A DNA stretch of 64,000 bases. Origin: Vicinamibacteria bacterium (lineage in GTDB: Bacteria > Acidobacteriota > Vicinamibacteria > Marinacidobacterales > Marinacidobacteraceae). The notes below the pieces were generated by a model, which saw nothing but the letters and a program-made list of their open reading frames with translations, was not told the origin of the DNA and ran no database searches. The first letter of the stretch is position 1. Each line of letters starts with the position of its first letter. A program made the position numbers and the translations under genes. The stretch lies in assembly GCA_963422395.1 (NCBI GenBank), contig OY729431.1:1056001-1120000 (forward strand), in the 5' to 3' direction. Positions 7,839 to 28,440 of this stretch are shown one piece after another.

Positions 7839-7851
7839 GCGGATCGACGGG

Positions 7852-8106
7852 CTGAGCGCTCCGAGAGCGGGGCGTCAGGGATGGCATCGGGCATTCTCGT
7901 GGGAAGAGCGGGATGCCCCGCTCCCGAACCGCCCGGCGCTGCGCGCCGGGAATCCGAACTGCTGCCGGAGGCAGCGATTTCGGATTCTGGGTCACGATTC
8001 TGTGAAAGGGGGTGGACCCCCTTTCACACATACCCCCGCTGCGCCGCGCCCGAGGCAGAGCCTCGGTCGCAACAGGTGTTTTTTCGGCCGCGGACTGGGG
8101 TCGAGG
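7852..8106 (-). repeat. Structured dispersed repeat family B, copy A
   Basis: Reverse complement aligns with 18259-18509 and 28137-28432 (AAAACACC.G.TGCG, GCAGCGGGGG..GTGTGAAAGGGGG-n4-CCCC.TTCAC, terminal ACGCCCCG(C/T)TC stem). Confidence 0.85.
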
Positions 8107-8201
8107 TTTTCGAGCGGGGCGTGATGTGGGGTTGCGTTTCGCACTCCCGCGGGAAGAGCGGGACGCCCCGCTCCCGAACCGCCCGGCGCTGCGCGAAAGG
8201 G
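8103..8201 (-). repeat. Partial tandem copy of the family B 3' stem-loop
   Basis: GAGCGGGGCGT...GGGAAGAGCGGGACGCCCCGCTCCCGAACCGCCCGGCGCTGCGCG repeats about 7865-7945. Confidence 0.75.
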
Positions 8202-8252
8202 GGGCAGATCCTGCTTTCGCGGGCCGGGCGGTTTGCGGCTGCTGGCGGCGAA

Positions 8253-9893
8253 TCAGTGCCGCGACTCTTCCGCTGCCGAGTCCGGATTGGGGTCCGGATC
8301 AGGGCGCACCGTCGGGTACTCGATTCCGAGTTGCTCCAGGTAACTGTCGTAGCGGTTGGGGTCGTAGTAGAACGGGCGCATCTCCTCCCGGAAGGCGTCC
8401 ATGCGGTCCTCGTTGCGATGGATCGCCGGCGGGTCGTCGGGGCCGATCAGCGGGGTGTACTGGTGCTCGCTGGTCTGCTCGGCGAAGTATTCCTTCGCGG
8501 CCGGCACCAGTTCCGGGTCGAGGAACAGGTCCATGAGTGTCATGGCGATCACCCGCGCTCCGGCGACCGCGCCCTTGTGGGCGATCGGGGTCGCCATCGC
8601 CACCGCGTTCGCCCAGTGGTGGCCGGGGCCGCCGGGGATGTTCGACGGGAAGCGCAAGGTGACCGTCGGAACATTCCAGGAGATGTCCCCGATGTCGTCC
8701 GATCCGCCTCCTAGCCTCGGCTCCGGCGCCGGGCCGCCGATCTCCCCGAGTTCGGTGGCGAGGCCCTGCTCCTCGACACCGAGTTCTCGCTGGAGCCCAT
8801 GGGCGAGCGCCTGGTCCGCCTCGCTCCATTCCGGAAGCCCTACCCGCTCGATGTTGGCCCAGACCGCCTCCGCGACCGGCTTGTTGAAGTACCGGGGATA
8901 GGCGTGGCCCAGGATGCGCCAGGAGACCTCGGTGTCGGTCATGGCGGCGGCGGCTTCCGCCATCGTGTTGCCGAGGTCGAACAACTCCTGCATTCCCGAC
9001 TGTTCCAGCTCGCGAAAGTAGTACCAGACGGACGCCAGCTGCGGCACCACATTCGGCTGGTCCCCTCCGTTGGTGATCACATAGTGCGAGCGGTGCGGCA
9101 GCCGCAGATGCTCCCGCTTGTAGTTCCAGGCGGTGTTCATGATCTCCACCGCGTCGAGGGCGCTCCGCCCGCGCCAGGGCGCGCCCGCGGAGTGCGCCGA
9201 TTCGCCGCGGAAGGTGTACTCGACGGAAACGAGGCCGTTGCCGCCGCCCTGTCCCCAGCTCACCCCGAAACGCGAGGAGACATGGGTGAAGATGCAGACA
9301 TCCACATTCTCGAAGTAGCCGTCGCGGAGGAACCACGCCTTGCTCCCCACCAGCTCTTCTGCGACTCCGGGCCAGAGGACGATGGTCCCCGGAATGCCCT
9401 CGCGCTCCATCACCTCCTTCGCGGCGAGCGCACCCGCCACGATCACCGCCTGTCCCGAGTTGTGCCCCTCGCCGTGGCCCGGGGCACCCTCGACCAACGG
9501 ATCGTGATACGCCACTCCCGGCTTCTGGGACGCCTTCGGGATCCCATCGATGTCGCTGCCGAGCGCGATCACCGGCGATCCGGAGCCCCAGCGGGCGATC
9601 CACGCTGTCGGTATTCCGGAGATCGCCTCTTCGACTTCGAATCCCTGCTCGCGCAGGATCCCGGTGAGGTAGCGGGAGGTCTCGACTTCCTGAAAACCGA
9701 GCTCTCCGAAGCTGAAGATGGAGTCCACCATAACCTGCACCAGCTTGGCCCGCTCGGACGCCCCCTGTTCTGCCACCGGGCGCAGCGTTTCCAGATCCTG
9801 CGCCGCGAGCGGGGCGGCGAGCAGGGCAGTGACCGGGAAAGCGAACAGGGCGGCCGGCAGCAGCAGCCGGCGCTTCACGAACGGAGTGGGCAT
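8253..9893 (-). CDS. Secreted M20-family amidohydrolase (AbgB-like)
   Basis: Signal peptide; ELGFQEVETS, GHGEGHNSG, VAEELVG, SAHSAGAPWRGRSALDA, GSDDIGDISW. Confidence 0.85.
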   Translation of the reverse strand: MPTPFVKRRLLLPAALFAFPVTALLAAPLAAQDLETLRPVAEQGASERAKLVQVMVDSIFSFGELGFQEVETSRYLTGILREQGFEVEEAISGIPTAWIARWGSGSPVIALGSDIDGIPKASQKPGVAYHDPLVEGAPGHGEGHNSGQAVIVAGALAAKEVMEREGIPGTIVLWPGVAEELVGSKAWFLRDGYFENVDVCIFTHVSSRFGVSWGQGGGNGLVSVEYTFRGESAHSAGAPWRGRSALDAVEIMNTAWNYKREHLRLPHRSHYVITNGGDQPNVVPQLASVWYYFRELEQSGMQELFDLGNTMAEAAAAMTDTEVSWRILGHAYPRYFNKPVAEAVWANIERVGLPEWSEADQALAHGLQRELGVEEQGLATELGEIGGPAPEPRLGGGSDDIGDISWNVPTVTLRFPSNIPGGPGHHWANAVAMATPIAHKGAVAGARVIAMTLMDLFLDPELVPAAKEYFAEQTSEHQYTPLIGPDDPPAIHRNEDRMDAFREEMRPFYYDPNRYDSYLEQLGIEYPTVRPDPDPNPDSAAEESRH

Positions 9894-10169
9894 CGGAACG
9901 AACCTCTCTTGGGCGGTAGCGTATGCCCCCGCGGGGCTCGCCGGAGGCGGCGGAGTGTATCGGCGGCGGATTGCCGCGGACCCGTCGTTTCCGCGGGCTT
10001 CCGGGTGGCGGCGAATAGGACGCGCGGAACCCGGTGCGGCGCGTCGACTGCCGCGGAGGGGGCGGCGAGCCGTGGGCGGAGTGGAGAACGGGGCTCGCCG
10101 GTCGGCGGCCGCATGACTTCGGTAGCGGACTGCTAATCTCCCTCTCGCCAGGAGGCTTTCGGCGCCGCT

Positions 10170-10251
<82 letters not shown>

Positions 10252-10292
10252 TGAGCCCGTCGCCGGACACCAGCGAGTTCGTGGACAAGCAG

Positions 10293-11609
10293 ATGAAGCC
10301 GCCGTCCGATGCGGAGCGCATTCCAGGGCTCGGCTTCCGGCTCGAAACGGAGAGTTCCTCCCGGCGCGCGATCGAGGTAACGGTCCCGGCCGCCGTCTTC
10401 GAGGAAGCGGTGCAGGAGGAGCTGCGCCGGATTCGCCGGCGCGCCCACCTGCGCGGCTTCCGCAAGGGGAAAGCCCCCCTCGAGAGGATCGAGCGGGCCT
10501 ACGGCGACGACGCCAGGGAACGTGCCATCAGCCGTCTGGTGGCCCGCGCCACCCGCGAGAGCCTCCACGAGCTCGGCGTCGCGCCGCTCGATACGCCGGA
10601 GGCACGGATCGAAGGGGCCGAGCGGGGGGGAGCACTGACCGCCCGGCTGACCTTCAGTGTCTGGCCGGACCTCGGAACGGTGGATTTCTCCGGCATCGAG
10701 GTCGAAGACCCGAAGAGCTCGATCACCGAATCCGATATCGGGGAAACGCTGGAGCAGATGCGGATCGAGCGGGCGACCCCCGGACCGATCACCGATCGCG
10801 GCATCCAGGACGACGATTTCGTCGTGGGCGACCTCGAGGAGTCGGACACTGCCGAGGGAAGTGCGTGGTTGCGAAAAACCGAGGGAGTCGCGTTTCGGGT
10901 GGGGACCGGGGCCTACCACCCCGCACTCCACGAAGCGCTCCAGGGCGCCCAGGCCGGCGATACCGTGATCGCCACCGCCCGCTTCGGAGAGGAGTCGCCG
11001 GATCCGGACCGCGCGGGGCGGGCGCTGCGGGCGCAGTTCGAGATCGGGAAAGCGGCCATGCCGGTGCTACCGCCGCTCGACGATGCTTTCGCCCGCAGCG
11101 TGGGTGCGAACTCGCTGCTCGCACTGCGCGGCGACATCCGCGACCGGCTGCGTGAGCGCGCTGCGGCGGACGACCGCCGCGAACTGGCGAACCGGTTGGT
11201 GGCCGCTCTGCTGGAAAAGAATCCCGTGGAGCCTCCGGTGCCGCTCGTGCAGGGGGATCTCGACAATCGGGTGCAGCTCCTCGCCGCGGGCATGGAGGAG
11301 CGCGGAATTCCTCCGGAACAGGTGGAGGCGGAGCTCAGGCGGCGTCTTCCGGAGCTGCGCGCCAACTGTGAGAGCACGGTCGCTTCTGCGATCCTGCTGG
11401 ATGCGCTGGCTGATCAGGAGAACATCGAAGCATCCGAGGAAGTGGTCTCCGAACGCATCGGCGCCCTGGCCGAGCGGCAGAAGAAGACTCCTGCCGCTCT
11501 CCGGGCGGCGATGGAAGGTGACGGGCAGCTCGATCGCCTCCGCACCGGACTTCGGCGGGATGCGGCGATAGAGTTTCTCCGGGAACGGGCGCGGCGGACC
11601 ACGGTCTGA
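10293..11609 (+). CDS. tig: Trigger factor (start uncertain: 10251 or 10293)
   Basis: Ribosome-binding signature LRGFRKGKAP, LPPLDDAFA; tRNA-Leu-tig-clpP-clpX synteny. Confidence 0.9.
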   Translation: MKPPSDAERIPGLGFRLETESSSRRAIEVTVPAAVFEEAVQEELRRIRRRAHLRGFRKGKAPLERIERAYGDDARERAISRLVARATRESLHELGVAPLDTPEARIEGAERGGALTARLTFSVWPDLGTVDFSGIEVEDPKSSITESDIGETLEQMRIERATPGPITDRGIQDDDFVVGDLEESDTAEGSAWLRKTEGVAFRVGTGAYHPALHEALQGAQAGDTVIATARFGEESPDPDRAGRALRAQFEIGKAAMPVLPPLDDAFARSVGANSLLALRGDIRDRLRERAAADDRRELANRLVAALLEKNPVEPPVPLVQGDLDNRVQLLAAGMEERGIPPEQVEAELRRRLPELRANCESTVASAILLDALADQENIEASEEVVSERIGALAERQKKTPAALRAAMEGDGQLDRLRTGLRRDAAIEFLRERARRTTV

Positions 11610-11719
11610 GTGCCTGAGTGAAACCGGAGGAATCCACTTGGGAAGATCCCGGCAGTGACGGTTTTCGTCCCAGTCAGGCGGTAATCTGCTTCCGGGCTCC
11701 GGGAGGAAGGAAGATACTC

Positions 11720-12343
11720 ATGAAACCCGAAATCCGCGATCAGGTGTTGATTCCCCATGTCATCGAGCAGACCGGCCGGGGAGAACGCGCCTATGACATC
11801 TACTCTAGGCTGCTCAAAGACAGCATCGTCTTCATCGGGCAACAGATCACGGATTCTCTCGCCAATACCGTCGTGGCTCAGCTGCTTTTCCTCGAAGCGG
11901 AAGATCCCCAAAAGGAAATTTCCCTGTATATCAACTGTCCGGGCGGTTCGGTGAGCGCGGGGCTCGCGATCTACGACACGCTGCAGTTCATTCGTCCCGA
12001 TGTGACGACGTATTGCCTGGGGCAGGCGTCCAGTATGGGGGCGATCCTGTTGGCGTCGGGGGCGGTCGGCAAGCGCTTCGCTCTGCCCAACTCCACGATC
12101 ATGATCCATCAACCCCTCGGCGGGGTCGAGGGGCAGGCGACCGATATCCAGATCCGGGCCAATGAGATCGTGCGGGTGCGGTCCCGGCTGATCGAGATCC
12201 TCGCCCGGCACACCGGCCGGGATGCCGCGGAGATCGCCCGCGACATCGAGCGGGATCACTTCATGACCGCCCAGGACGCCCGTGAGTACGGAGTGGTGGA
12301 CCAGGTGATCGAACGCCGGGTGACTTCGGAAACCGACAGCTAG
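11720..12343 (+). CDS. clpP: ATP-dependent Clp protease proteolytic subunit
   Basis: [19 protein letters not shown] (catalytic Ser), MIHQP, RDHFM; purine-rich SD upstream. Confidence 0.97.
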
Positions 12344-12373
12344 TCATGACCTTGCGATAGGTTGTTCATGCGA
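12344..12373 (+). mobile_element. Decayed IS481 left-end remnant at the clpP CTAG
   Basis: CTAG-TCATGACCTTGCGATAGGTTGTTCATGCGA versus the IS481 end CTAG-CTGTGACCTTGCGGTAGGTTGTTCACGCGA. Confidence 0.7.
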
Positions 12374-12461
12374 TCCTCAAGACCGGACCAGTTCTTCTGC
12401 TCGGAGTGGTGCTTGGCGCGGTTCTGCCGGGATGCCTCGCCGGTCGGCTGCCGAGTGGCTC

Positions 12462-12481
12462 CATCCACGGGCTGCTAGAAT
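12462..12481 (+). promoter_or_regulatory. Solo MITE-A terminus forming extended -10 TGCTAGAAT for clpX
   Basis: CATCCACGGGCTGCTAG matches the MITE TIR; TAGAAT at 12476-81 lies 10 nt before GTG 12492. Confidence 0.6.
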
Positions 12482-12491
12482 CGAGAGCGCT

Positions 12492-13802
12492 GTGCCAACC
12501 AGGGGGAAGCGGTCGAGCGGCGGACCCACCGACAATCTGACCTGCTCCTTCTGTAACAAGCGGCAGGGATCCGTCGGCAAGCTGATCGCCGGGCCCGATC
12601 GGATCTTCATCTGTGATGAATGCGTCGCCATATGTAACGACATCATCGCGGACAAGGGGAGGGTGCCGTCGCCCGAGACCCGGCGCAAGCAGCCGCTTAC
12701 TCCGGAACAGATCAAGTCGCGTCTCGACGACTATGTGATCGGTCAGGAGGAAGCCAAGAAGAAACTCGCGGTTGCGGTCTATAACCACTACAAACGGGTC
12801 CGGCTCACCCGGCACGGAGGCTCGGGTCAGGAAACCGTGGAGCTGAGCAAGAGCAATGTCCTGCTGCTCGGAGAGACGGGAACCGGAAAGACACTCCTCG
12901 CCCAGACGCTCGCCCGAATCCTCGAAGTTCCGTTCACTATCGTGGACGCCACCACTCTGACCGAAGCCGGCTATGTCGGCGAGGATGTCGAGAACATCAT
13001 CTTGAAACTCCTGCAGGCCGCGGACGGCGATATCGCCCGCGCCCAGGAAGGCATCATCTATGTGGACGAGATCGACAAGGTGTGCCGCAAGGAGGAAAAC
13101 CCTTCGATCACCCGGGATGTCTCGGGCGAGGGAGTGCAGCAGGCGCTGCTCAAGATCGTCGAGGGGACGGTGGCGAGCGTTCCCCCCCAGGGAGGCAGGA
13201 AACACCCGCACCAGGAGTTCCACCAGGTGGACACCACGAACATCCTGTTCCTCTGCGGCGGGGCTTTCGTGGGACTCGAATCCATCATCGAACGCCGCAT
13301 CGGTGAAAAGGCGCTGGGTTTCGGCGCCGCCGTTCCGGAGAGCGCGCGGGCGCGGCGGGACGCTACCCTCGACCAGCAGCAGCCCGCCGACCTGATCCGT
13401 TACGGGCTCATTCCCGAGTTCGTCGGCCGTCTGCCGGTGGTCGCGACTCTTCGGAACCTGGGCGAGCGCGAGCTCATCCGGATCATGACCGAACCCAGGA
13501 ATGCCATCGTGAAGCAGTACCAGGCGCTGCTGCGCGACGAGGGCGTCGAGTGCCGCTTCACCGACGACGCCCTCGAGTCGATCGCGGTCCAGGCCGTCGA
13601 GCGCAACCTCGGGGCCCGCGGACTCCGGATGATCATCGAAGACCTGATGCTCGATCTGATGTATGACCTGCCCTCGCGGAAACAGGTGCGCGAGGTCGTG
13701 GTCACCCGGGAATTCGTTGTCGGACAAGCCGATCCGGTCACCGTGCTTTCCCGAAAAGCAGCCCCCGAAGCCGCCCGAAAAGCTACCCAAAAAGCTGGCT
13801 GA
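12492..13802 (+). CDS. clpX: ClpX ATPase
   Basis: Zinc finger CSFC...ICDECV, Walker [36 protein letters not shown] loop. Confidence 0.97.
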
Positions 13803-13874
13803 CTGCCGAAGCGGCTGCCGGCCTTCGGTCGGGCGTACCGCCCGGCGCGCTGCTCCTTTCTCTACTTCTCTCGA

Positions 13875-14522
13875 ATGACCGCCACCATGCCGCAAAGAAC
13901 GCGGGCGCCCGCCGTCTTCGTGACGAGCGCCGCTGCTGCCGCCGGTTTCCCGCCGCCGGCGATGCCCGAGGTGGCGTTCATCGGACGCTCGAATGTGGGG
14001 AAGTCGAGCCTATTGAACCGGCTCGCCGGAGCGCGGCGCCTCGCGCAGGTGTCGAAGACGCCCGGTCGCACCCGGACCGTCAATTTCTTCGATGTCGGGG
14101 GGAACCACCGGTTGGTGGACCTTCCGGGGTACGGGTTCGCGAGGATTCCGGATGCGGTGCGAGCCGGATGGGAAGACCTCGTCCTCGCCTATCTCACCGA
14201 CCGCGAAAGTCTGGTACTGCATCTGCTGCTCGTGGACTCGCGGCGCGACCCGCTCGCAAGCGACCGCGAGGCGTTCGCCCTGCTTCGCGGCACCGGGCGG
14301 GCGGTTGCAGTGGTCGCCACCAAGGTGGACCGGATGCGGCGCGGTGAGACGCGCTTGCGGCTGCGGCTGCTCGAAGAGGCGTACGGCGAAGGCGGGGCGA
14401 TTCCGGTGATCGCCTGTTCGACGGTCACCCTCCTCCCGCGGGCCGGAGTTCCGTCGGGTGCGCTCTCGGGGATCTCCGAGGTTCGGCGGCTCATCGCCGA
14501 GAAGGTAGAGGCATGGCGCTGA
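13875..14522 (+). CDS. engB: Ribosome-biogenesis GTPase YihA/YsxC
   Basis: PEVAFIGRSNVGKSS, SKTPGRT, DLPGYG, TKVD. Confidence 0.95.
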   Translation: MTATMPQRTRAPAVFVTSAAAAAGFPPPAMPEVAFIGRSNVGKSSLLNRLAGARRLAQVSKTPGRTRTVNFFDVGGNHRLVDLPGYGFARIPDAVRAGWEDLVLAYLTDRESLVLHLLLVDSRRDPLASDREAFALLRGTGRAVAVVATKVDRMRRGETRLRLRLLEEAYGEGGAIPVIACSTVTLLPRAGVPSGALSGISEVRRLIAEKVEAWR

Positions 14523-15874: not shown

Positions 15875-15915
15875 GTCTCCCCCTCGAGTTCTCATGCTAC
15901 GATCCCGGCCCTCTC

Positions 15916-16164
15916 GTGCGCGCCGGCATCCATCCTCCGTACCAGGAAATCAAGGTGGCCTGCGCCTGCGGCGCGAGTTTCTCGACTCGCTCCACCCGGA
16001 AGACCGACCTCCGTCTCGAGATCTGTTCCGCCTGCCACCCGTTCTTCACCGGAAAGCAGCGGATCATCGACTCCACCGGACGGGTCGAGCGGTTCCGCCA
16101 GAAGTTCGGCCAGGTCCAGTCGAAGCGTCTGGCGAAACAGCAGTCGCCGCAAGCGGCTTCCTGA
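15916..16164 (+). CDS. rpmE: 50S ribosomal protein L31 (zinc-binding type)
   Basis: [36 protein letters not shown]; TGCTACGAT -10 at 15895-15903. Confidence 0.96.
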
Positions 16165-16237
16165 TCCTGCCGGCGAGCCGCTCGCCGGCCCCTCGCCGGC
16201 GGTGGCAGTGGCAGGAGCGACCCCGGGTATTTGCTCC

Positions 16238-17335: not shown

Positions 17336-17338
17336 GCG

Positions 17339-18337
17339 GTGGGCGCTGCGCCCACCGCCCGGGAAGCGAACCGCAGTGGGGCTCGGCGCCTCGCCGCCGC
17401 TGGGGTCTCCTCTCCGGCCTTCGATGCGGGGCTGCTGCTTCGCACCGCGGCGGGGTGGTCCGCGGCCGACCTCGCCGCCCGGCCGGAAGAGCGCCTGTCT
17501 CCGGCGGCGAGCGCCAGGTTCGACCGCCTGATCGGCGCCCGCGCCGCCCGCCGCCCCCTCCAGCACCTCACCGGAAGCGTCGAATTCTTCGGAGTCCCGC
17601 TCGCGGTCGGCCCCGAAGCGCTCGTTCCCCGACCGGACACCGAGACCCTCGTGGAAGCGGTGCTCGCCCGGCTCGCTTCGAAATCGGCGGCTCCGCTCCG
17701 GATCGCCGATGTCGGGTGCGGTTCGGGCGCGGTTGCGCTCGCGCTCGCCTCGCGCCTCCCGGGGTCCCGGCTCTTTGCGCTCGACTGCTCGGCGCCCGCG
17801 CTGGGCCTCGCGGCGCGGAATGTCCGGGACACCGGTTTCGGCGGGAGGGTCCGGATCGCTCGCTGCGACCTTTTGCGCGGGATTCGGAGCGGAGTGTTCG
17901 ACGCAGTGGCGGCGAATCTGCCGTACGTCCCCGATGCCGAAATCTCCCGCCTCCCGCCCGAAGTGCGGGATCACGAGCCGCGCCTCGCGCTCGCGGGCGG
18001 GTTCGACGGCCTCGAGCCGTTGCGCCGGTTCGCGCCCGAGGCGGCGCGGGCGCTCCGACCGGAGGGGGAGCTCTTCGTCGAGATCGGGGCCGGGCAGCGT
18101 CCCGCCGCGCAGGCGATCCTGGAGGCCGCCGGCTTCGGACCGGTCACGGCCTTTTCCGACCTCGCCGGGATCCCCCGCGTCCTCGCCGCCCCGCGCGCTC
18201 CAGAACCGAGCGGTGCCCCGAATTCTGAACCGCCGCCCTCCCAGCGGATATATCGTGACCTTCGACCGCGGCCAGGAAAAACACCTGCTGCGAGCAGTCC
18301 CGCAGGACTGATCGCGGCGCAGCGGGGGAAAGTGTGA
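17339..18337 (+). CDS. prmC: Release factor glutamine methyltransferase; C-terminus reads into a family B repeat
   Basis: LVPRPDTETLVE, DVGCGSGAV, NLPY (NPPY variant), HEPRLALAGG; follows prfA. Confidence 0.92.
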   Translation: MGAAPTAREANRSGARRLAAAGVSSPAFDAGLLLRTAAGWSAADLAARPEERLSPAASARFDRLIGARAARRPLQHLTGSVEFFGVPLAVGPEALVPRPDTETLVEAVLARLASKSAAPLRIADVGCGSGAVALALASRLPGSRLFALDCSAPALGLAARNVRDTGFGGRVRIARCDLLRGIRSGVFDAVAANLPYVPDAEISRLPPEVRDHEPRLALAGGFDGLEPLRRFAPEAARALRPEGELFVEIGAGQRPAAQAILEAAGFGPVTAFSDLAGIPRVLAAPRAPEPSGAPNSEPPPSQRIYRDLRPRPGKTPAASSPAGLIAAQRGKV

Positions 18338-18509
18338 AAGGGGGTCTACCCCCGTTCACGAATTTGGTAACTCGGAAGCCGAACTCGCTGCCTCCGGCGG
18401 CAGTTCGGCTTCCCGGCGCGAGGCGCCGGGCGCTTCGGGAGCGGGGCTCCCTCCCTCTTCCCCGAGAACGCCCGACGCCATCCCGACGCCCCGTTCCCGG
18501 ACCGCTCGG
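18259..18509 (+). repeat. Structured dispersed repeat family B, copy B
   Basis: Colinear with the reverse complement of 7852-8106 over ~250 nt. Confidence 0.85.
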
Positions 18510-18526
18510 GCGGATAGGATCGGGGC

Positions 18527-20843: not shown

Positions 20844-20880
20844 CGAGGGCCAGCCGCCAGCCAGAGCCAGCCGCCGGCTA

Positions 20881-21097
20881 ACAGCCTGTGGATGAAGTGG
20901 CGCGAGCCCAAAGAGCGGTCCAGTTCTCCCGGTGGGGGCGGCGCCCGGCTGGCAAGGCGCGTGAGGGAGGAATACCGGGAGTATTTCGACCGAAACGCAA
21001 CGATGAGCGCCGTGAAACGGGGCGGTTCAGCCGGGGCCCCCACCGGGAGAACTGGGCATCGCCGGCCTTTGGCCGTGTGACTTTGTCCACCGGCTGC
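20881..21097 (-). mobile_element. MITE family A, copy 3 (217-bp variant with extra internal inverted repeat)
   Basis: TA 20879-80 and 21098-99; same TIRs; lies between convergent genes. Confidence 0.88.
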
Positions 21098-21116
21098 TAA
21101 GGCTGGCTGCCGAAGC

Positions 21117-21929: not shown

Positions 21930-21995
21930 GACAGCGGATCGGGGCGGGCGGCAGAGTGTAAGGACAAATCGCCGAGCCACCGTTAGGATTCCTGG

Positions 21996-22535
21996 GTGCC
22001 CTCCGAGCTCGCCGTGCTGCGTGGCCGCCTGCTGGCCGCGGTGTTCGCCGGAATCTTCGGCGCCGACCGGATCACCAAGATCCTGGCCGAACGCTGGCTG
22101 GAAATGGGCGACCCGGTGGCGGTGGTCCCGGGATTGTTCCAGCTCAGCCTCGTCCACAACACGGGAATGGCGTTCGGGCTGCTGCACGAGGTGTCGTTCG
22201 CGGGAAAGGCGTGGGTTCTGACGGCGGGTTCCGCCGCTCTCCTCGCGGTGATCGTCTGGTTCGCGATCCGCTCCGGCCCTCTCCCCGCGCTGACCGCTCT
22301 CGGGATCACCTCGATGCTGGCCGGAGCGGTGGGCAATATCGGTGATCGAATCCTCTACGGCCATGTCGTGGACTTCGCCGACTTCTATCTCGGTTCGGCG
22401 CACTGGCCGGCCTTCAATGTCGCCGACGCGGCGATCTGCGTCGGCGTCGGCCTGCTGTTCCTCGAGAGCGTCCGCGAGTTCCGGCGTGCGCGCGCCGGCG
22501 GCGCGGACCTCGGCCGGGCCGGAGCGGCTCGCTGA
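21996..22535 (+). CDS. lspA: Lipoprotein signal peptidase II
   Basis: NTGMAFG, GAVGNIGDR, GHVVDF, WPAFNVADAAI. Confidence 0.96.
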   Translation: MPSELAVLRGRLLAAVFAGIFGADRITKILAERWLEMGDPVAVVPGLFQLSLVHNTGMAFGLLHEVSFAGKAWVLTAGSAALLAVIVWFAIRSGPLPALTALGITSMLAGAVGNIGDRILYGHVVDFADFYLGSAHWPAFNVADAAICVGVGLLFLESVREFRRARAGGADLGRAGAAR

Positions 22536-23326
22536 TGTTTCCGCGCCTCCTGGACTTCGGTCCGCTGGAGTTCGCCTCCCGGACCTTCCACCCCGTTCTC
22601 CATACCTACGGACTGTTGTTGTTCGCCGGCTTCGTGATCGGCATCTGGACCGCCGCCCGGCGCGCCCCGCAACACGGAATCGCCTCCCGTCACATCTACG
22701 ATCTGGCCCCCTACCTGTTTCTCGGAGCGTTGATCGGAGCGAAGGTCCTCCTGATCCTGCTCGACCCGGTGCGCTTCTGGGACAACCCCTGGGGCTTCAT
22801 CAGCGCGGGGGGGGTCTTCTTCGGGGGCCTGCTCGGGGCGGTGGGGGCGACCGTGTGGTTCTTCCGCTCGCGGGGGATCGAGGTCTGGAACGGGGGCGAT
22901 CTCATGGCGCCGTCCATCGCCCTCGGACACGGGATCGGCCGGCTCGGCTGTTTCGCCGCCGGCTGTTGCTATGGAATTCCCGCGGAAGGCCTGACCGCCG
23001 TCACTTTCACCGACGTCTACGCGAACTCGTTCACCGGCGTTCCTCTCGGAATTCCCCTCCACCCCACCCAGCTCTACGAAGCGGGCCTCGAATTCGGTCT
23101 TTTCCTGTTCCTCCTCGTGCTGGCCCGCCGCCGTCGGTTCCAGGGCCAGATCTTTCTGGTCTGGGCCGTCGTCTATGGGGTCTCCCGGTTCGTCATCGAG
23201 TTCTACCGGGGTGATCCGCGCGGCTTCATGCTCGACGGGCTGCTTTCCACTTCGCAGTTCCTCGGGATCGGGATCGTTCTTTCCGCCGCCGCCGCGTTGC
23301 TTGTCCTCCGAAAGCGCCCCGCCTGA
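22535..23326 (+). CDS. lgt: Prolipoprotein diacylglyceryl transferase
   Basis: YGLL, GRLGCFAAGCCYG, LHPTQLYE, RFVIEFYRGD. Confidence 0.96.
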   Translation: MFPRLLDFGPLEFASRTFHPVLHTYGLLLFAGFVIGIWTAARRAPQHGIASRHIYDLAPYLFLGALIGAKVLLILLDPVRFWDNPWGFISAGGVFFGGLLGAVGATVWFFRSRGIEVWNGGDLMAPSIALGHGIGRLGCFAAGCCYGIPAEGLTAVTFTDVYANSFTGVPLGIPLHPTQLYEAGLEFGLFLFLLVLARRRRFQGQIFLVWAVVYGVSRFVIEFYRGDPRGFMLDGLLSTSQFLGIGIVLSAAAALLVLRKRPA

Positions 23327-24410
23327 CCCGATCGGCACCGCGCCTCCGAGCTTCGGATCCGGGGCTCCCGAGTTCACGATCTCCTTCGAGGTCGCCTCCG
23401 AGGACGGTGGCCGCCGGCTCGATTCCACCGCAGCGAAGCGCCTCCCGCGGCTCAGCCGGACGGAGGTCGCGCGCTGGGTCGAGGCGGGCTTCGTTCTCAT
23501 CGATGGCCGGGTGCGGCGCCCGGGCTATCGCTGCCGCGCCGGGCAAACCGTGCGCATCGCCGGCCCCGCTGCCGGCGCTCCGCGCTTCCGACCGCCCGGC
23601 GAGCGGGAACCGCTCGACCCGGAGCCGGTTCCGCTGAAGATCCTCCATGAGGACGAGCACCTGGTGGTGCTCGACAAGCCCCCCGGGATCGTGGTCCATC
23701 CGGGGCCGGGACATCCCGGAGGTTCCCTCGCGAACGGCCTCCTCCATCGGTATCCCGAAATGAGCGCCGTCGGTCCTCCCGGACGTCCCGGGCTCGTTCA
23801 CCGGCTCGACCGGGGCACGAGCGGGGTGCTGGTGGCTGCCCGCACCGAAACGGCGCGGCGGCGGCTCGCCGAGAGCTTCGCCCGCCGTCAGGTGGAAAAA
23901 CGGTATCTGGCGCTGGTCCTCGGACGGTTCCCGGGCCTCCGGCGGATGGCCGAGCCCATCGGGCGCGACCCGCGGAACTCGCAGCGATACCGCATCCGCG
24001 GCAAGAACGCCCGGGAGGCCCTGTCGGAGGCCCGGCCCCTCGAGGAGCTCCCCCTTTCGACGCTGGTCGCCCTGTCCCTCGGAACCGGCCGCACGCACCA
24101 GGCCCGGGTCCATCTCGCGGGTGCGGGCTTCCCGATCGCTGGCGACGCGATGTACGGCCCGAGTGCCCCCCGCCGGGGCGGAGGCCGCGCCGGCGCCGCG
24201 CTGCGCCGGCTCGAGCGCCCGGCGCTCCACGCCGCCGAAATCGGGTTCCTCCACCCGGCGAGCGGGGAGACCGTGCGCTTCGCCGCCCCCCTCTTCGAAG
24301 ATCTCGATCGGACCCTCGCCGCGCTCCGGCAAGCGTCCACCGTGGAAGAGGGCTCGACCCTCCGCGCGGCCGGGGCTCGCATAGGATTCGCGCGCGGCAG
24401 GAGTCGGTGA
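23301..24410 (+). CDS. rluD: RluA/RluD-family pseudouridine synthase with S4 domain (start uncertain)
   Basis: RRLD S4 domain, KPPGIVVHPG, VHRLDRGTSG, TGRTHQARVH, ALHA. Confidence 0.88.
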   Translation: MSSESAPPDPIGTAPPSFGSGAPEFTISFEVASEDGGRRLDSTAAKRLPRLSRTEVARWVEAGFVLIDGRVRRPGYRCRAGQTVRIAGPAAGAPRFRPPGEREPLDPEPVPLKILHEDEHLVVLDKPPGIVVHPGPGHPGGSLANGLLHRYPEMSAVGPPGRPGLVHRLDRGTSGVLVAARTETARRRLAESFARRQVEKRYLALVLGRFPGLRRMAEPIGRDPRNSQRYRIRGKNAREALSEARPLEELPLSTLVALSLGTGRTHQARVHLAGAGFPIAGDAMYGPSAPRRGGGRAGAALRRLERPALHAAEIGFLHPASGETVRFAAPLFEDLDRTLAALRQASTVEEGSTLRAAGARIGFARGRSR

Positions 24411-24445
24411 TCCCGCAACGCTCTTCCTGCCCGAAATCCTGGCAC

Positions 24446-24994
24446 ATGCCTGACAGCCGCTCGAAGACGGTTCTCGGCGGGGAGGAATTCCGGAAGGCGT
24501 TTTCGAGGCTCGGGGATCTGGTGAACGCGGAGATGCCGGACCCTCTCGCCATCCTCGGGATCCGGCGGCGGGGAGTGCCGCTCGCCATGCGGCTGCAAGG
24601 CCATCTCGAACGCGCGGGCCGCCGGGATGTCCCCATCGGGGAACTCGACATCAACCTCTATCGGGACGATGTCCACGACCGCGGCCTGCCCCGGGTGCGA
24701 GAGACCCGCATTCCCTTCCCCCTCGAAGCGCGGCACATCCTGCTCGTGGACGATGTGTTGTACACCGGGCGGACGATCCGGGCGGCGCTGACGGCGCTGA
24801 GCAACTTCGGCCGCCCCCGGAGCGTCCGCCTCGCGGTGCTAGTGGACCGTGGAGGGCGCGAACTGCCCATCGCCGCGGACTTCGTGGGCCTCGACCTCGC
24901 GGCCGGCGCCGATCGGCTGGTGCGGGTCCGAGTGATGGAGGAGGACGGGCAAGACGGCGTCTTCACGATCGCCGCCGGAGCTGAAGGACGGTGA
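24446..24994 (+). CDS. pyrR: PyrR bifunctional regulator / uracil phosphoribosyltransferase
   Basis: LDINLYRDD, LLVDDVLYTGRTIRAAL, VDRGGRELPI. Confidence 0.95.
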   Translation: MPDSRSKTVLGGEEFRKAFSRLGDLVNAEMPDPLAILGIRRRGVPLAMRLQGHLERAGRRDVPIGELDINLYRDDVHDRGLPRVRETRIPFPLEARHILLVDDVLYTGRTIRAALTALSNFGRPRSVRLAVLVDRGGRELPIAADFVGLDLAAGADRLVRVRVMEEDGQDGVFTIAAGAEGR

Positions 24995-25920
24995 GGCAGC
25001 TGCTGGGGATTCGCGGGCTCTCCGCGCCGGAGGCCCTCGCGATCCTGGACGAGGCCCCCCGGTACCAGGATGTGGCCGAACAGCCGGTCCCCCGGGTCCC
25101 CATCCTGCTCGGCCGTACCGTGACCCACCTGTTCCTCGAGCCTTCGACCCGCACCCACGCGTCCTTCCAGCTGGCCACCCGGCGGCTCTCGGCCGAGCCG
25201 CTCTCCTTCGCGCCCGGAACCTCCTCGCTCACGAAGCGCGAGACCTTTCTCGACACCGCCCGCACCCTCGCCTCGATGGCCCCCGACATCATCGTGGTGC
25301 GCAGCCGCGAAACCGGTGCGCCGGCAGTGCTCGCCCGCGAGATTCCGGACGCCTCGGTGGTGAACGCCGGCGACGGCATGAACGAACATCCGACCCAGGC
25401 ACTCCTCGACGCCTTCACGATCCGGGAGCGCCGGGGGCGGATCGAGGGCCTGCGGGTGGCCATCGTCGGCGACCTGCTCCACAGCCGGGTGTTTCGCTCG
25501 AACGCCCGGCTACTGACCCTGCTGGGCGCAGAAGTGCGGTGCTCCGGCCCCCCGACCCTGATCCCTCCCGGCCTCGAACGGCTGGGCGTCCGCCCGTTCC
25601 TGCGGCCGGAAGAGGCCCTCGCGGACGCCGATGCGGTCATGGTGCTGCGGATCCAGATCGAGCGGATGCACGGCCCCTCGATCCCCTCCGAGCGGGAGTA
25701 CTACGAGGAGTTCGGATTGACCAGTGAGCGCCTCGCGCTTACCCGGGACGCCATCGTGCTCCACCCGGGGCCGTTGAACCGCGGCGTGGAGATCTCCTCC
25801 GCCGTTGCCGACGGGCCGCAGTCGGTCATTCTCGACCAGGTGCGGAACGGCGTCGCAGTGCGCATGGCGGTGCTCGCCGAGATCGCACGCAGCCGGCCGC
25901 GGCGAACCGGCGATGGCTGA
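24991..25920 (+). CDS. pyrB: Aspartate carbamoyltransferase
   Basis: EPSTRT, NAGDG, HPTQALLD, HPGPLNRGVEI. Confidence 0.97.
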   Translation: MRQLLGIRGLSAPEALAILDEAPRYQDVAEQPVPRVPILLGRTVTHLFLEPSTRTHASFQLATRRLSAEPLSFAPGTSSLTKRETFLDTARTLASMAPDIIVVRSRETGAPAVLAREIPDASVVNAGDGMNEHPTQALLDAFTIRERRGRIEGLRVAIVGDLLHSRVFRSNARLLTLLGAEVRCSGPPTLIPPGLERLGVRPFLRPEEALADADAVMVLRIQIERMHGPSIPSEREYYEEFGLTSERLALTRDAIVLHPGPLNRGVEISSAVADGPQSVILDQVRNGVAVRMAVLAEIARSRPRRTGDG

Positions 25921-27196
25921 GCCCCCGGTCCTGATCCGCGGCGCCCGGGTGGTGGACCCGGCAGCCGGCCTCGACGGGATCCGGGATCTACGGCTCGCGG
26001 AGGGGAAGGTCGCTGCGGTCGGACTCGGCCTCGTCGAGCCCGGAGATGTGGTCTTCGAAGCCGCCGGCCTCGTCGCGGCCCCCGGTTTCTGCGACATGCA
26101 TGTCCATTTTCGCGAGCCCGGCTTCGAGTACCAGGAAACGGTGGCGAGCGGAGCGGCGGCGGCGGTCGCCGGAGGGTTCACCGCAGTGGCCTGCATGGCG
26201 AACACCGATCCGGTGAACGACAACCCCTCGATCACTGCCCATATCCGGCAGCTCGCTGCCGATGCCGGTCTCGCGCGGGTCTGGCCCATCGGGGCGACGA
26301 CCCGGGGGATGCGGGGAGAGCGGATCACCGAATTCGGCTGCCTTCGGCGCGCCGGGGCGGTCGCGGTCTCCGACGACGGACTCCCGGTGCGCGATCCGGC
26401 GGTGATGCGCCGCGCTCTCGAATACGCCCGTCTCTTCGATCTCCCGGTGATCGAACACTGCGAGACCCTCGAGCTGACCGGCGATGGCGCGATGCGGGAG
26501 GGCGCGGTCGCTACCGAGGCCGGGCTGCCGGGGATTCCGGCAGCTTCCGAGTTCATCGCGGTGGAGCGGAACATCGCCCTCGCCGAGGTCACCGGCTCCC
26601 GCCTCCACATCGCGCACCTCGGCACCGCGCGTTCGGCGGCCGCAGTGCGCCGGGCCAAGGCGGCGGGGCTCCGGGTGACCGCCGAAGTGACCCCGCACCA
26701 CCTGCTCCTCAACGAAGAGGCGGCCGGTGGCTGCGATACCGCCGCCAAGATGAAGCCTCCGCTCGCTTCCGAGGCGGACCGCGCGGCGTTGGTCGAGGCG
26801 ACCGCCGACGGAACGGTGGATGCCATCGCCACCGACCACGCCCCCCATCACGAGGACGAGAAGAAACTCTGTTTCCAGAGCGCGCCATTCGGGATCGTCG
26901 GGCTCGAAACCGCGGTTCCCCTCGTCCTCGATCGGCTCGTGATGCCGGGGACGATCTCCCTGGCCGACGCGGTGCGGCTGCTCTCCGTCGGTCCGCTGCG
27001 GATCCTGGGAAGGCCGGGCGGGGATCTGAAGCCCGGGAGCCCGGCGGACATCACCCTGCTCGATCTGGAATCCAGCACCACGGTACGCCCCGAGTCGTTC
27101 CGCAGCCGAGGCCGCAGCACGCCGTTCGCCGGCCTCGAACTGCGCGGCCAGGTCGCCGCCACCTGGGTGGGTGGGCGGCTGGTCTTTTCGCGTTAG
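25913..27196 (+). CDS. pyrC: Dihydroorotase
   Basis: DMHVHFREPG, EVTPHH, ATDHAPH, FGIVGLET. Confidence 0.96.
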   Translation: MAEPPVLIRGARVVDPAAGLDGIRDLRLAEGKVAAVGLGLVEPGDVVFEAAGLVAAPGFCDMHVHFREPGFEYQETVASGAAAAVAGGFTAVACMANTDPVNDNPSITAHIRQLAADAGLARVWPIGATTRGMRGERITEFGCLRRAGAVAVSDDGLPVRDPAVMRRALEYARLFDLPVIEHCETLELTGDGAMREGAVATEAGLPGIPAASEFIAVERNIALAEVTGSRLHIAHLGTARSAAAVRRAKAAGLRVTAEVTPHHLLLNEEAAGGCDTAAKMKPPLASEADRAALVEATADGTVDAIATDHAPHHEDEKKLCFQSAPFGIVGLETAVPLVLDRLVMPGTISLADAVRLLSVGPLRILGRPGGDLKPGSPADITLLDLESSTTVRPESFRSRGRSTPFAGLELRGQVAATWVGGRLVFSR

Positions 27197-27211
27197 CAGT
27201 CTTTGTGCCCG

Positions 27212-28108
27212 ATGTCGCAGCGCGGCTTTCGGAAGGTGGCGGAGCAGGTCTTCCTCCGGCATGGTCCGGGGAAGGACGCCGCGCTCGCTTCCGATCCACT
27301 CGAATTCCCGCGTCGCTTCACAACCTCCGAGGATCGCGAGGCCGCGGCTTTTCTCGCTGCTTCGCTCGCTTACGGCAACGCCGTCACCGTGCGCTCGTCG
27401 TTGTCCCGAATCTTCGCCTGGACCGGCCCCCGCCCAGCGGATTTCCTCCGGACGCTGACCCGGGGCCGCGGGCTCGCCGGACTCCGGGGTTTCCGGCACC
27501 GCCGGAGTAGCGCAGAGGATGTGGTCGGTCTCGGCCTCGTCCTGCGCGGTCTGCTCGAAGTGCACGGGACGCTCGAAGCGGCCTTCCAGCGCGGGATCGT
27601 CCCGGGAGACCACGCCAGGGCGGATCTCGGCGCCAGCATCGTGCGGTTTCGTGAGGAAGCGCTTCGTTTCCAGCCGAAAGCCGCGGTAGCCGGTCCCGGC
27701 GTCCGCTTCTTCTTCCCGAGCCCCCGGACTTCCGCGGCCAAGCGGATGGCCATGTTCCTCCGCTGGGTCGTTCGCGAAGACGATGGGCTGGATCTCGGGC
27801 TCTGGCGCTGCCTCGACCCGCGCGACCTGGTGGTGCCGCTGGACACCCACATGTTCCGCATCGCGCGCAGGCTGCGCCTCACCGCCCGAAAAACTCCGGG
27901 CTGGCCGGCGGCGCTGGATCTGACCCGGGCGCTCGCACAGCTCGATCCTGCGGATCCGACGAAATACGACTTCGCCCTCAGCCGCCTCGGCATCGTCGAG
28001 GGTTGTCCCCGCCACCCCCGGAGCGACCCCTGTGAGCTCTGCCGGTTGTTCCACCGTCCTCGCCTCCGTTCCCGAGGGGACACTCCGCCGAGACCGCTCA
28101 CGCGATAA
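27212..28108 (+). CDS. TIGR02757/DUF2400 family protein
   Basis: DPLEFP, LAYGN, SAAKRMAMFLRWVVR, DLGLW, PLDTH, DPTKYDFAL. Confidence 0.85.
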   Translation: MSQRGFRKVAEQVFLRHGPGKDAALASDPLEFPRRFTTSEDREAAAFLAASLAYGNAVTVRSSLSRIFAWTGPRPADFLRTLTRGRGLAGLRGFRHRRSSAEDVVGLGLVLRGLLEVHGTLEAAFQRGIVPGDHARADLGASIVRFREEALRFQPKAAVAGPGVRFFFPSPRTSAAKRMAMFLRWVVREDDGLDLGLWRCLDPRDLVVPLDTHMFRIARRLRLTARKTPGWPAALDLTRALAQLDPADPTKYDFALSRLGIVEGCPRHPRSDPCELCRLFHRPRLRSRGDTPPRPLTR

Positions 28109-28136
28109 CGCTGCCGCTCCGCTCGGTCCGAGAGGG

Positions 28137-28432
28137 CTTGGACCCGTCCCGTGGCTGGAAAACACCGGTTGCGCCCGAAGCGGAGCTTCGGGAGCGTCGC
28201 AGCGGGGGAAAGTGTGAAAGGGGGTTCACCCCCGTTCACAGCATGGTGATTTCGAATCGGACTCGCTGCCGCCGGTTCCAGCCTGACGGCGAATCGAGAC
28301 TGGGGAGGGATCGAGCGGCAGGAGTGCGATTCGCGGCGCGGAGCGCCGGGCGGTCCGGGAACGGGGCGTTGTCTCTTCTCGCGAGGGAGCGGGACGCAGT
28401 ATCACCTCACGCCCCGTTCCCGGACCGCTCAG
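28137..28432 (+). repeat. Structured dispersed repeat family B, copy C (divergent, with insertion)
   Basis: Same conserved blocks; 22-bp terminal stem 28348-28369 / 28409-28430. Confidence 0.8.
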
Positions 28433-28440
28433 ACGCAGAC

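Follow-up and report, generated by a model that had tools for sequence, protein, structure and literature searches.

A putatively non-coding, lineage-restricted dispersed repeat of covarying hairpins in Vicinamibacteria

Three structured intergenic segments lie on both strands of the window (the whole stretch of 64,000 nt of DNA that was analysed), and they raise the question of whether such segments are RNAs tied to the genes that they follow or copies of an element that spreads through the genome. The original prediction, made from the window alone, had left the choice between a single-stranded DNA element of the REP/HUH type, a retro-mobilised RNA and a structured RNA of 3'-untranslated regions. 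We compared the copies with one another, with the rest of the genome and with related genomes.

Copies in the window and across the genome

Copies A, B and C were all found where the original prediction had placed them, and they align over 340 columns with a mean column identity of 75%. Both motifs described as common to the three copies, AAAACACC and GGGGG..GTGTGAAAGGGGG, are present, and alignment and folding bear out the parts assigned to the element, namely a hairpin that varies between copies and is enclosed by an outer stem (H1), a GTGAAAGGGGG-n4-CCCCCKTTCAC hairpin (H2), a GCTGCC/GGCAG stem (H3) with a loop insertion of ~42 nt in copy C, and a terminal stem (H5) of ~21 bp. The limits of copies A-C are HMM-refined coordinates (Table 1). 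Chance resemblance is ruled out by nhmmer E-values down to 1e-83 and by covariation that beats 500 of 500 shuffles. The partial unit next to copy A, which had been overlooked, forms with it a two-unit head-to-tail array, and a convergent tRNA-Leu gene has its 3' end 7 nt away from that of copy A.

Table 1. Coordinates of the element copies, their hairpins and neighbouring features in the window
Feature	Position	Strand	Description	Basis of limits
tRNA-Leu(CAG)	7752..7838	+	Context	
Copy A	7845..8109	-	Full unit (HMM positions 9-274)	HMM
Partial unit	8112..8195	-	3' module alone (HMM 173-254), immediately upstream of copy A	
Copy B target-site duplication (TSD), left	18244..18250	.	GCGGATA, 7 bp	
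Copy B	18251..18509	+	Single unit, 259 nt	Empty prmC-SSF spacers of relatives
H1 of copy B	18286..18320	+	G·U-rich outer stem enclosing copy-variable hairpin	
H2 of copy B	18334..18359	+	GTGAAAGGGGG-loop-CCCCCGTTCAC; near-invariant sequence across genera	
H3 of copy B	18374..18412	+	Apex takes ~42-50 nt insertions in other copies	
H4 of copy B	18413..18429	+	CCGGCGC-GNA-GCGCCGG; two covarying pairs	
H5 of copy B	18430..18507	+	~21-bp closing stem, fast-evolving interior of ~45 nt; 14/21 pairs covary	
Copy B TSD, right	18510..18516	.	GCGGATA, 7 bp	
Copy C	28130..28439	+	Long form of unit (HMM 6-274)	
Insertion in H3 loop of copy C	~28272-28316	+	~42 nt	

Three copies proved far too few as an estimate of family size: in a genome-wide nhmmer collection we identified 104 non-redundant matches at 58 intergenic loci, which occupy ~26.5 kb of the 2.9-Mb genome. 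The unit is a modular row of five hairpins (H1-H5) of ~200-300 nt, typically ~250 nt. Many loci are head-to-tail arrays of 2-5 units each, with periods (TRF) of 248 nt (4.9 repeats, 95% matches) and 294 nt (3.3 repeats, 96% matches), and median identity is 94.5% inside arrays vs. 78.4% between loci; the element has thus multiplied locally into arrays. Many copies are partial or are recombined mosaics of modules, the products of its decay.

According to our own dicodon gene caller, the calls of which are approximate, all but one of the 58 loci (57) are free of overlap with genes. Convergent spacers hold 20 loci and divergent spacers 15, and both classes are over-represented relative to the spacers of the whole genome (298 convergent, 297 divergent and 1669 co-directional), whereas the loci in co-directional spacers are divided equally between sense (11) and antisense (11). 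Within the window, copies A-C do lie on the sense strand 3' of the M20, PrmC and DUF2400 genes, respectively, as had been reported, but as a general rule this arrangement fails genome-wide. The interpretation as a structured RNA of 3'-untranslated regions is unsupported, because the orientation test, which was set beforehand, came out random and another 35 loci are located between convergent or divergent genes. Orientation to the leading strand (33 vs. 25) likewise shows no replication-strand bias across the 58 loci, and the loci are scattered unevenly along the genome.

With a covariance model, the element was detected in the genome under study, in 16/16 genomes of genus g2 and in 3/3 of genus g5, and in none of 8 genomes from other genera of the family or 27 genomes from two other families of the order. 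Among the genomes scanned, it is limited to three genera of one Vicinamibacteria family, all uncultured, in which it reaches well over 40, about 50, copies per genome. Among the species genomes scanned, the exact H2 motif was confined to MAG records of Acidobacteriota or Vicinamibacteria; carriage by phages was rejected, with no match to this motif in viral contigs and one in metagenome contigs. The isolate names of some carrier records resemble those of what are presumably sponge-symbiont bins.

The element could not be assigned to a described family, in agreement with the original prediction. A check against Rfam 15, self-cleaving ribozymes included, gave no match to it at the gathering score, the sole match in the window being a tRNA, and nothing below E = 0.01 in one array or in copy B; literature searches on repeats of Acidobacteria and Vicinamibacteria, on MITEs and REPs, on sponge symbionts and on Marinacidobacterium listed no description of it. 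The Acido-1 RNA (RF01686; Weinberg et al. 2010, PMC2864571) is likewise restricted to Acidobacteria and, again like the present element, has a pair of hairpins connected by a purine-rich linker. Full-length Acido-1 matches were found in 3 units of one array among roughly 60 units with H1-H2, but these are weak (22-25 bits, best 25.1, vs. a gathering score of 50), and we rejected membership in favour of mere resemblance.

Occupied and empty sites

Copies B and C are insertions, as the element is missing from relatives in which the order of genes is the same. For copy B, the prmC-SSF gene order is preserved at 8 loci of relatives, with a spacer of ~50 nt in g2 loci and a longer one in some others, and the element was present in none of 25 prmC loci of relatives. 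The heptamer GCGGATA occurs once in the empty sites and twice, as an exact 7-bp duplication, around copy B. The original prediction had found neither terminal inverted repeats nor target duplications: inspection by eye also disclosed no inverted repeat at the copy B ends or at those of the consensus, but the second half of that statement does not hold for copy B. In 5 syntenic relatives, the DUF2400/OEP site that copy C occupies holds no element. In contigs from four sequencing runs that cover the copy B region, depth over the element was in ~50-fold excess, and no contig joined across an empty site.

Within the sister genus, there are two sites at which 2 species carry the element and 4-5 species, with flanks that are 92-94% identical, do not; a further species (G017) has a mini variant at one of the two. 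Owing to differences between the spacers, the exact limits of these insertions cannot be read. At three compared sites other than that of copy B, the old spacer was seemingly replaced rather than split. These comparisons show that the element entered intergenic spacers after the genera diverged. A general target duplication was not evident: direct repeats of at least 7 nt flank 9 of 46 loci, compared with 15% in mismatched pairs. A TSD is demonstrated at copy B alone, and the flanks of the inspected element ends showed no common motif.

At three tRNA genes of the genome, the gene and an element adjoin one another by their 3' ends; the tRNA-Leu(CAG) gene next to copy A is one of them, and the same tRNA-Leu is abutted by a copy in a sister-genus genome (G007). 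The copy at this position could be old, retained and therefore useful.

Conservation of the fold

Covariation was assessed in 36 copies from the genome under study and related MAGs (41 pairs, 1465 stem cells). Of these cells, 98.0% pair, compared with 89.1% in 500 shuffles, and compensatory changes are found at 19 of the 41 pairs; the observed values were reached by none of the shuffles on each of five measures, and a control with slid partners gave 41-56% pairing. The hairpins are thus maintained through compensatory change, and the proposal that structure is kept more than sequence is upheld. G·U (G·T) pairs outnumber A·C in the stems both across genera (68 vs. 10) and within the genome (526 vs. 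194), which identifies the strand given in Table 1 as the folding strand. Some G·U pairs are themselves conserved, at column pair 188-279 in 32/36 copies and at 194-273 in 19/36. Folding energy was rejected as a test of strand, because it does not separate the two (for copy B, z = -4.8 on the given strand and -5.5 on its complement). Architecturally, the unit consists of long, near-perfect hairpins in a row, with no multi-helix junction; H2 is a perfect palindrome with a sequence near-invariant across genera, and the long stems H3 and H5 covary.

Such a record is also what a family of structured non-coding RNA genes would leave, in which the given strand would be transcribed and act as RNA (a protein sponge or scaffold) and dispersal would be secondary. 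The covarying pairs, the G·U pairs conserved on one strand alone, the near-invariance of H2 and the persistence of the element in 3 genera all speak for this explanation. However, neither the copy A region nor an array of five units yielded a sigma-70-type promoter, and we detected no intrinsic terminator (a GC-rich hairpin with a T run behind it) inside their units. In addition, orientation to genes is random, truncated and recombined copies are numerous, occupied sites differ among close species, the hairpin row lacks a multi-helix junction and Rfam returned no match at the gathering score. On balance, we consider an RNA gene family unlikely.

The best reading of these data is that the element behaves as a small genomic parasite rather than as a gene-linked regulatory RNA. 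Specifically, we propose, with a probability of about 0.55, that it is a putatively non-coding, non-autonomous, lineage-restricted dispersed repeat of hairpins H1-H5, similar to BOX and BIME, that depends on an enzyme provided in trans. Several points count against this proposal: strong covariation and conserved G·U pairs are also expected of a functional RNA; no mobilising enzyme was found, and the one IS family examined has unrelated ends; a TSD is shown at one site only, with the old spacer seemingly replaced at three others; and the copy next to tRNA-Leu could be an old, retained one.

The element shares with BOX/BIME-type mosaic repeats its intergenic location, modular hairpins, variable module number and restriction to a lineage, a likeness of functional class and not of homology, since there is no sequence relation to either. 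BOX elements are described as having end modules A and C of inverted-repeat character and a B module that alone is repeated. The present element, in contrast, repeats head to tail as whole units of 248-294 nt without visible inverted ends, and its five hairpins covary across genera. BOX of Streptococcus pneumoniae (Croucher et al. 2011, PMC3049150) and the present element have in common that they are non-coding (putatively so for the latter), modular and rich in structure, vary in the number of internal modules, are each restricted to one species group and have no known transposase of their own. In that study, BOX is regarded as parasitic with slow turnover, and its structures as possibly affecting co-transcribed genes. 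REPs are short single palindromes in alternating orientation that are tied to RAYT, whereas the present units are ~250 nt long, lie head to tail and are accompanied by no RAYT in the genome. The element does share with REP/BIME repeats (Nunvar et al. 2010, PMC2817692) an intergenic location, palindromic structure, abundance and an arrangement in composite arrays.

Possible routes of spread

If the element is indeed such a parasitic repeat, the machinery that spreads it would recognise the given strand in single-stranded form, as RNA or DNA, and the hairpins would be kept for this recognition. The mobilising enzyme would act in trans and may be encoded by the host or already lost, arrays may grow via unequal recombination between units, and effects on neighbouring genes (a read-through barrier or a structure at mRNA ends, for example) would be a by-product and not the reason for which the family exists.

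The ends of the copies are asymmetric. At 26 loci, truncation affects the 5' end only and the 3' end is intact, compared with 6 loci truncated at the 3' end only; element 3' ends are sharp (HMM 265-276), whereas 5' starts are spread over 35-185. In most arrays the truncated unit is the 5'-most one, and at several 3' junctions the last 8-16 nt are tandemly duplicated. Copying that starts at the 3' end, perhaps with an RNA intermediate, would be compatible with this excess of 5' truncation. It is quite unlikely, in our estimate, that the element spreads by 3'-end copying via RNA of the given strand, that is, by a SINE-like or RNA-templated process that would involve an undescribed enzyme or route and use the hairpins and H2 as recognition signals.

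The fixed 3' ends, variable 5' ends and TSD recall SINEs and the target-primed retroposition of non-LTR elements, as well as 5'-truncated fragments of group II introns. A SINE-like copy-and-paste, in which a reverse transcriptase acting in trans would copy a transcript, starting at its 3' end, into a nicked target, would account for this asymmetry, for the position of truncated units in arrays, for the duplication at copy B, for the tandem duplications at 3' junctions and for wobble pairs on one strand only. However, the reverse transcriptase domain RVT_1 (PF00078) is absent from the genome (a single contig, 93.8% complete by marker genes) and was matched in 4/28 genomes of the family and 2/16 of the sister genus, although all 16 of the latter carry the element. 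No A-rich tail was seen at the 3' ends inspected, the units scanned lack a sigma-70-type promoter, a general target duplication was not evident, and neither group II introns nor ribozymes were matched in Rfam. The 5' starts, moreover, cluster at module borders and hairpin loops (12 lie at HMM 160-185), a pattern that could also stem from recombination between modules. The suggestion of a retro-mobilised RNA thus agrees with the excess of 5'-truncated, 3'-intact copies but not with the distribution of RVT_1, and we regard this particular form of copying as decidedly unlikely.

Movement by an HUH tyrosine transposase, as a single-stranded DNA element of the REP/RAYT or IS200/IS605 type, appears very unlikely. 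The hairpins, the lack of visible terminal inverted repeats, the strand-specific structure and the presence of Y1_Tnp (RAYT-like) genes in 13/16 sister-genus genomes are what such a route might produce, but the genome under study contains no Y1_Tnp/RAYT candidate (PF01797), and three sister-genus genomes (G021, G042 and G043) carry the element without the gene. The check that had been suggested, for a RAYT/TnpA(Y1), IS110 or reverse transcriptase gene flanked by the motif, was negative: no such gene was found in this genome, and the element was found within 1.5 kb of none of 12 Y1 loci of relatives. One of these loci (L146) is flanked by four tandem hairpins of ~45 nt that belong to a different repeat, and we rejected a link to RAYT. 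The balanced replication strands and the target duplication of copy B also argue against this route, as does the length of the unit, roughly tenfold that of a REP. REP/RAYT (REPIN) units are single palindromes of about 20-40 nt, often in inverted pairs; units of 248-294 nt with five hairpins, head to tail, in a genome without RAYT, do not belong with them. PATEs derived from IS200/IS605 lack a TSD, insert beside a fixed short target and are biased with respect to replication strand. We rejected this origin given the 7-bp duplication at copy B, the lack of an apparent common flank motif, the absence from the genome of both PF01797 and the TnpB zinc-ribbon domain (PF07282), and the 33 vs. 25 strand split.

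Just as unlikely is an array of double-stranded sites for a nucleoid- or topoisomerase-type protein, of the kind proposed for BIMEs, that would be kept for chromosome organisation with H2 as an operator-like site, which would explain a perfect, sequence-invariant palindrome, arrays within intergenic DNA and indifference to gene orientation, but not the conserved G·T pairs (A·C mismatches on the other strand, meaningless in a duplex), the stems H3 and H5 that offer a duplex-binding protein no conserved sequence, or loci that are unevenly scattered and differ between species.

Known insertion sequences were also considered as sources. MITEs carry terminal inverted repeats that match those of a parent IS, and a TSD of fixed length at most copies. 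The present element resembles them in being small, non-autonomous and intergenic, with a TSD at one copy, and differs in that no inverted repeat was seen, no parent IS was found and a general target duplication was not evident. An IS5/IS1182-like element of 1.7 kb abuts one copy, but its ends are unrelated (one IS family examined), and IS110 with a bridge RNA was rejected because the genome contains no gene with the DEDD recombinase domain (PF01548).

Structured intergenic repeats are common and the mobility of most is unexplained, a question to which this family is well suited, as it combines a fold proven by covariation, a strand signature and demonstrable insertion differences between close species with one fixed and one ragged end and the absence of the usual enzymes. 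If 3'-anchored copying were true, it would point to a way of moving that has not been described in bacteria; otherwise, the family would still serve as a marker for strain typing. Annotation of neighbouring genes calls for caution because open reading frames run into the element: the one that passes through prmC extends into copy B and ends at a TGA inside H2.

Copy number, unit structure and fold

The three look-alike stretches of the original prediction are present in the window, aligning over 340 columns at 75% mean column identity, and all the motifs and stems named for them were found in the three copies. They represent a real, large and structured element, which is a dispersed repeat family rather than a gene-linked RNA. 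The window takes up positions 1,056,001–1,120,000 of its own genome, a single contig of 2,908,270 bp (68.4% G+C), in which an HMM seeded with the three window copies gave 103 matches, and 155 after one iteration (26,562 bases in all); 53 matches cover more than 200 model positions, and 104 matches at 58 loci were left once weaker overlapping ones were dropped. In the consensus unit, hairpins stand in a row: a weak leader hairpin is followed by H1 to H5, and the optional insertion at the apex of H3 makes the difference between a short form of 248 nt and a long one of 294 nt. Many loci hold head-to-tail arrays: near-full units number zero at 25 loci, one at 20, two at 8, three at 4 and five at 1, and TRF reported one array of 4.9 copies (95% matches) and another of 3.3 copies (96% matches). 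Median unit identity was 94.5% within arrays vs. 78.4% between loci (range 66–98%). Arrays typically start at the 5′ side with a partial unit, mostly the H4–H5 module alone, and finish with a complete 3′ end; module mosaics were found as well, for example, the leader or H1 fused straight to H5.

Features of the element, its hairpins and associated sequences (window coordinates unless a contig or locus is named; G000:C1, the window's own genome contig; L163, a locus of the relative G007)
Feature	Position	Strand	Description
Copy A	7845-8109	-	
Extra partial unit	8112-8195		immediately upstream of copy A
Copy B	18251-18509	+	
Copy C	28130-28439	+	
H1			outer stem with three conserved T·G pairs; variable hairpin inside
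H2			GTGAAAGGGGG-loop-CCCCCKTTCAC
H3			~17 bp; optional ~42-50 nt insertion at apex
H4			7 bp, triloop
H5			~21 bp around ~45-nt interior
ORF through prmC	17339-18337		extends ~90 nt into copy B, ends at TGA within H2
tRNA-Gly call (ARAGORN)	G000:C1:802506-802584	-	HMM scores a lone H5-module fragment here (model positions 182-252)
Tripled 3′ terminus	G000:C1:1335996-1336091		element's last 16 nt (GACCGCTCAGCCCGAG) three times in tandem, end of four-unit array
Enlarged element copy	L163:1191-1495		~105-nt insertion between H3 and H4; duplication within H2 loop
IS5/IS1182-like IS	G000:C1:2137471-2139161		1.7 kb; 467-aa DDE transposase (DDE_Tnp_1, DUF772, DDE_Tnp_1_6); ~20-bp inverted ends
Further IS copies	~1969160-1970863, ~1786186-1787713 (G000:C1)		three copies in all, 99% identity
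~55-85 nt repeat	2611-2684, 20886-20939		TAGCAGCCTGTGGA...CCAGTTCTCCCGGTGGGG; also genome-wide
204-nt repeat	60992-61195		five further copies, 95-98% identity, four full-length

Covariation was assessed in 36 core copies (H2–H5; 10 from the own genome and 26 from relatives' loci), chosen for their near-complete span of the core model and aligned with MAFFT without structure fitting. RNAalifold predicted 41 pairs, with compensatory double changes in 19; covarying pairs make up 14 of 21 in H5, 2 of 5 in H4 and 3 of 6 at the base of H3, and H2 does not vary at all in this alignment. On the predicted structure, 98.0% of the 1465 cells pair, vs. 89.1% in shuffles, and for every one of five measures the observed value was matched by 0 of 500 shuffles, a count that is not a probability because the copies are kin. 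When partners were slid by 1–3 columns, pairing fell to 41–56%. This control, together with the many differing H5 sequences that all still pair, makes the fold convincing.

Stem G·T pairs outnumber A·C pairs in the 36-copy alignment (68 vs. 10) and over all own-genome copies (526 vs. 194; in H1, 163 vs. 8), and one G·U pair is retained in 32 of the 36 copies. Since such pairs are mismatches on the opposite strand and meaningless in duplex DNA, the strand on which the unit is drawn folds as a single strand, either RNA or DNA; folding energies did not discriminate between the strands. The best-supported reading, to which we assign a probability of roughly 0.55, is a non-autonomous mosaic of the BOX/BIME kind, whose hairpins would be maintained through recognition of one strand, in single-stranded form, by putative trans-acting machinery, and whose arrays would grow through recombination.

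Position relative to genes

The neighbours originally named were confirmed by Pfam (an M20-type peptidase, PrmC and DUF2400); RNase R, an SSF transporter and an OEP protein also adjoin the window copies. According to approximate gene calls from a purpose-written dicodon caller (2265 genes, 90% of the genome), no called gene is overlapped at 57 of the 58 loci. The setting is convergent at 20 loci, divergent at 15 and co-directional at 22 (11 sense and 11 antisense), compared with 298 convergent, 297 divergent and 1669 co-directional spacers genome-wide under the same approximate calls. Judged by these counts, the element is without a preferred gene orientation and builds up where insertions are tolerated; with 11 sense vs. 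11 antisense loci, orientation to genes is random, the very outcome that the original prediction named as refuting it, and the proposed gene-linked RNA does not hold. The 3′ end is mostly no more than a few tens of bases away from the next gene boundary, and three elements meet a convergent tRNA gene (two Leu, one Ser) 3′ end to 3′ end. At copy B, the ORF through prmC runs into the element; relatives' prmC stops earlier, at a TGA equivalent to ~18226–18228 of the window, and automatic annotation would make prmC too long here.

A true multi-copy ncRNA would share the single-stranded fold and is the leading alternative, although an unlikely one. Neither a sigma-70-like promoter nor an intrinsic terminator was found within the units examined. 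At the gathering score, tRNA was the sole Rfam match in the window, and no Rfam family of ribozymes or group II introns matched the element. Acido-1, the best Rfam match in E-value mode (3 units of one array), was rejected at 22–25 bits vs. a gathering score of 50.

Insertion, truncation and candidate enzymes

The gene order upstream gene–prmC–SSF is conserved in 8 relatives' loci, with a prmC–SSF spacer of ~50 nt in the sister genus and longer ones in some other relatives, and the element HMM matched 0 of 25 relatives' prmC loci (0 of 24 without the unpublished genome G033). Alignment of occupied and empty sites fixes the limits of copy B at 18251–18509, and the 7-bp GCGGATA stands on both sides of this copy and is single in the relatives' empty sites. 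The copy C site (DUF2400/OEP) is empty in 5 syntenic relatives. At the copy A site, the element is absent in two genomes of another genus, and G007, from the sister genus, also holds a copy adjoining the same tRNA-Leu; either this copy is ancient and has been kept, or tRNA ends have been hit more than once. Two more sister-genus sites are each occupied in two species and element-free in four or five, with flanks 92–94% identical in the element-free species; G017 carries a mini variant at the first. No duplication is readable at these two sites because the spacer of the empty alleles is a different one, short and rich in hairpins. When direct repeats of at least 7 nt were sought in the flanks by a floating search, 9 of 46 loci had them vs. 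15% in mismatched pairs, with no general signal. Three paralogous segments of the own contig (~156.7 kb, 1284 kb and 2855 kb) hold element fragments at matching relative places and share flanks 75–98% identical; some copies thus spread by segmental duplication.

The 3′ end is intact at 46 of 58 loci (model position ≥262, clustered at 265–276) and the 5′ end at 26 (model position ≤25); truncation affects the 5′ end alone at 26 loci, the 3′ end alone at 6 and both ends at another 6, and the remaining 20 loci are untruncated. The 5′ starts spread over model positions 35–185, with 12 at 160–185. This asymmetry is expected from 3′-end copying and partly expected from module recombination too. 3′-primed, RNA-templated copying is improbable overall; RVT_1 occurs in 4 of 28 genomes of the family and had no match in the own genome, in a search that did recover it from control genomes. 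Short tandem duplications of the last 8–16 nt occur at several 3′ junctions; besides the tripled terminus, shorter ones were seen at four other 3′ ends.

We assign still lower probability to an HUH-type ssDNA element. Of the family's 28 genomes, 15 carry Y1_Tnp, among them 13 of the 16 from the sister genus, and these proteins have HVHVL and C-terminal YI.NPVKAGL motifs, by which we take them to be RAYT-like. The element was found within 1.5 kb of the relatives' Y1 genes at 0 of 12 loci fetched, and Y1_Tnp, the TnpB zinc-ribbon domain and the IS110 DEDD domain are all unmatched in the own genome, in searches that recovered the same families from control genomes. Upstream of one Y1_Tnp gene of G007 (L146:519-821) stand four tandem ~45-nt hairpins (GGAGGAAGGGAGCGCCGGTCT / AGACCGGCACC..CCTCC), a repeat unlike the element; with the gene, which is absent from the window's own genome, they look like a classical REP/RAYT pair. 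With respect to the direction of replication, the loci split 33 vs. 25, without bias. A duplex-DNA binding array, to which the G·T excess would mean nothing, is just as improbable. The IS5/IS1182-like IS was rejected as a parent: one copy adjoins an element 3′ end, yet the IS ends are unrelated.

Distribution and other repeats

BLAST matched the element core in every one of 13 sister-genus genomes, at ~70% identity. A covariance model built on 204 core positions and 41 pairs, run with stricter filters and at most 44 candidates scored per genome, matched the own genome, 16 of 16 sister-genus genomes and 3 of 3 of a third genus, whose copies are divergent; it matched 0 of 8 genomes from the family's four other genera and 0 of 27 from two further families within the order, the negatives including G033. 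In the species-genome collection, H2 has exact matches at 38 loci, every one in a MAG titled Acidobacteria, Acidobacteriota, Vicinamibacteria or 'Candidatus Marinacidobacterium'; the motif was also matched in 1 metagenome contig and in 0 viral contigs. Relatives' copies, some also in tandem, have another hairpin where H1 stands. The enlarged copy of G007 has a G019 orthologue that lacks both the H3–H4 insertion and the H2-loop duplication. No account of an element of this kind came up in a search of the literature on Acidobacteria/Vicinamibacteria repeats and 'Marinacidobacterium'.

With the flanks of three elements as queries, BLAST returned 40–89 matches to the ~55–85 nt repeat, which is probably the 'first dispersed element' of the original prediction; a related CTAGCAG..GTGG motif recurs in relatives just 5′ of genes and beside tRNA-Leu. 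One copy of the 204-nt repeat directly adjoins a 5′-truncated element at G000:C1:1883020.
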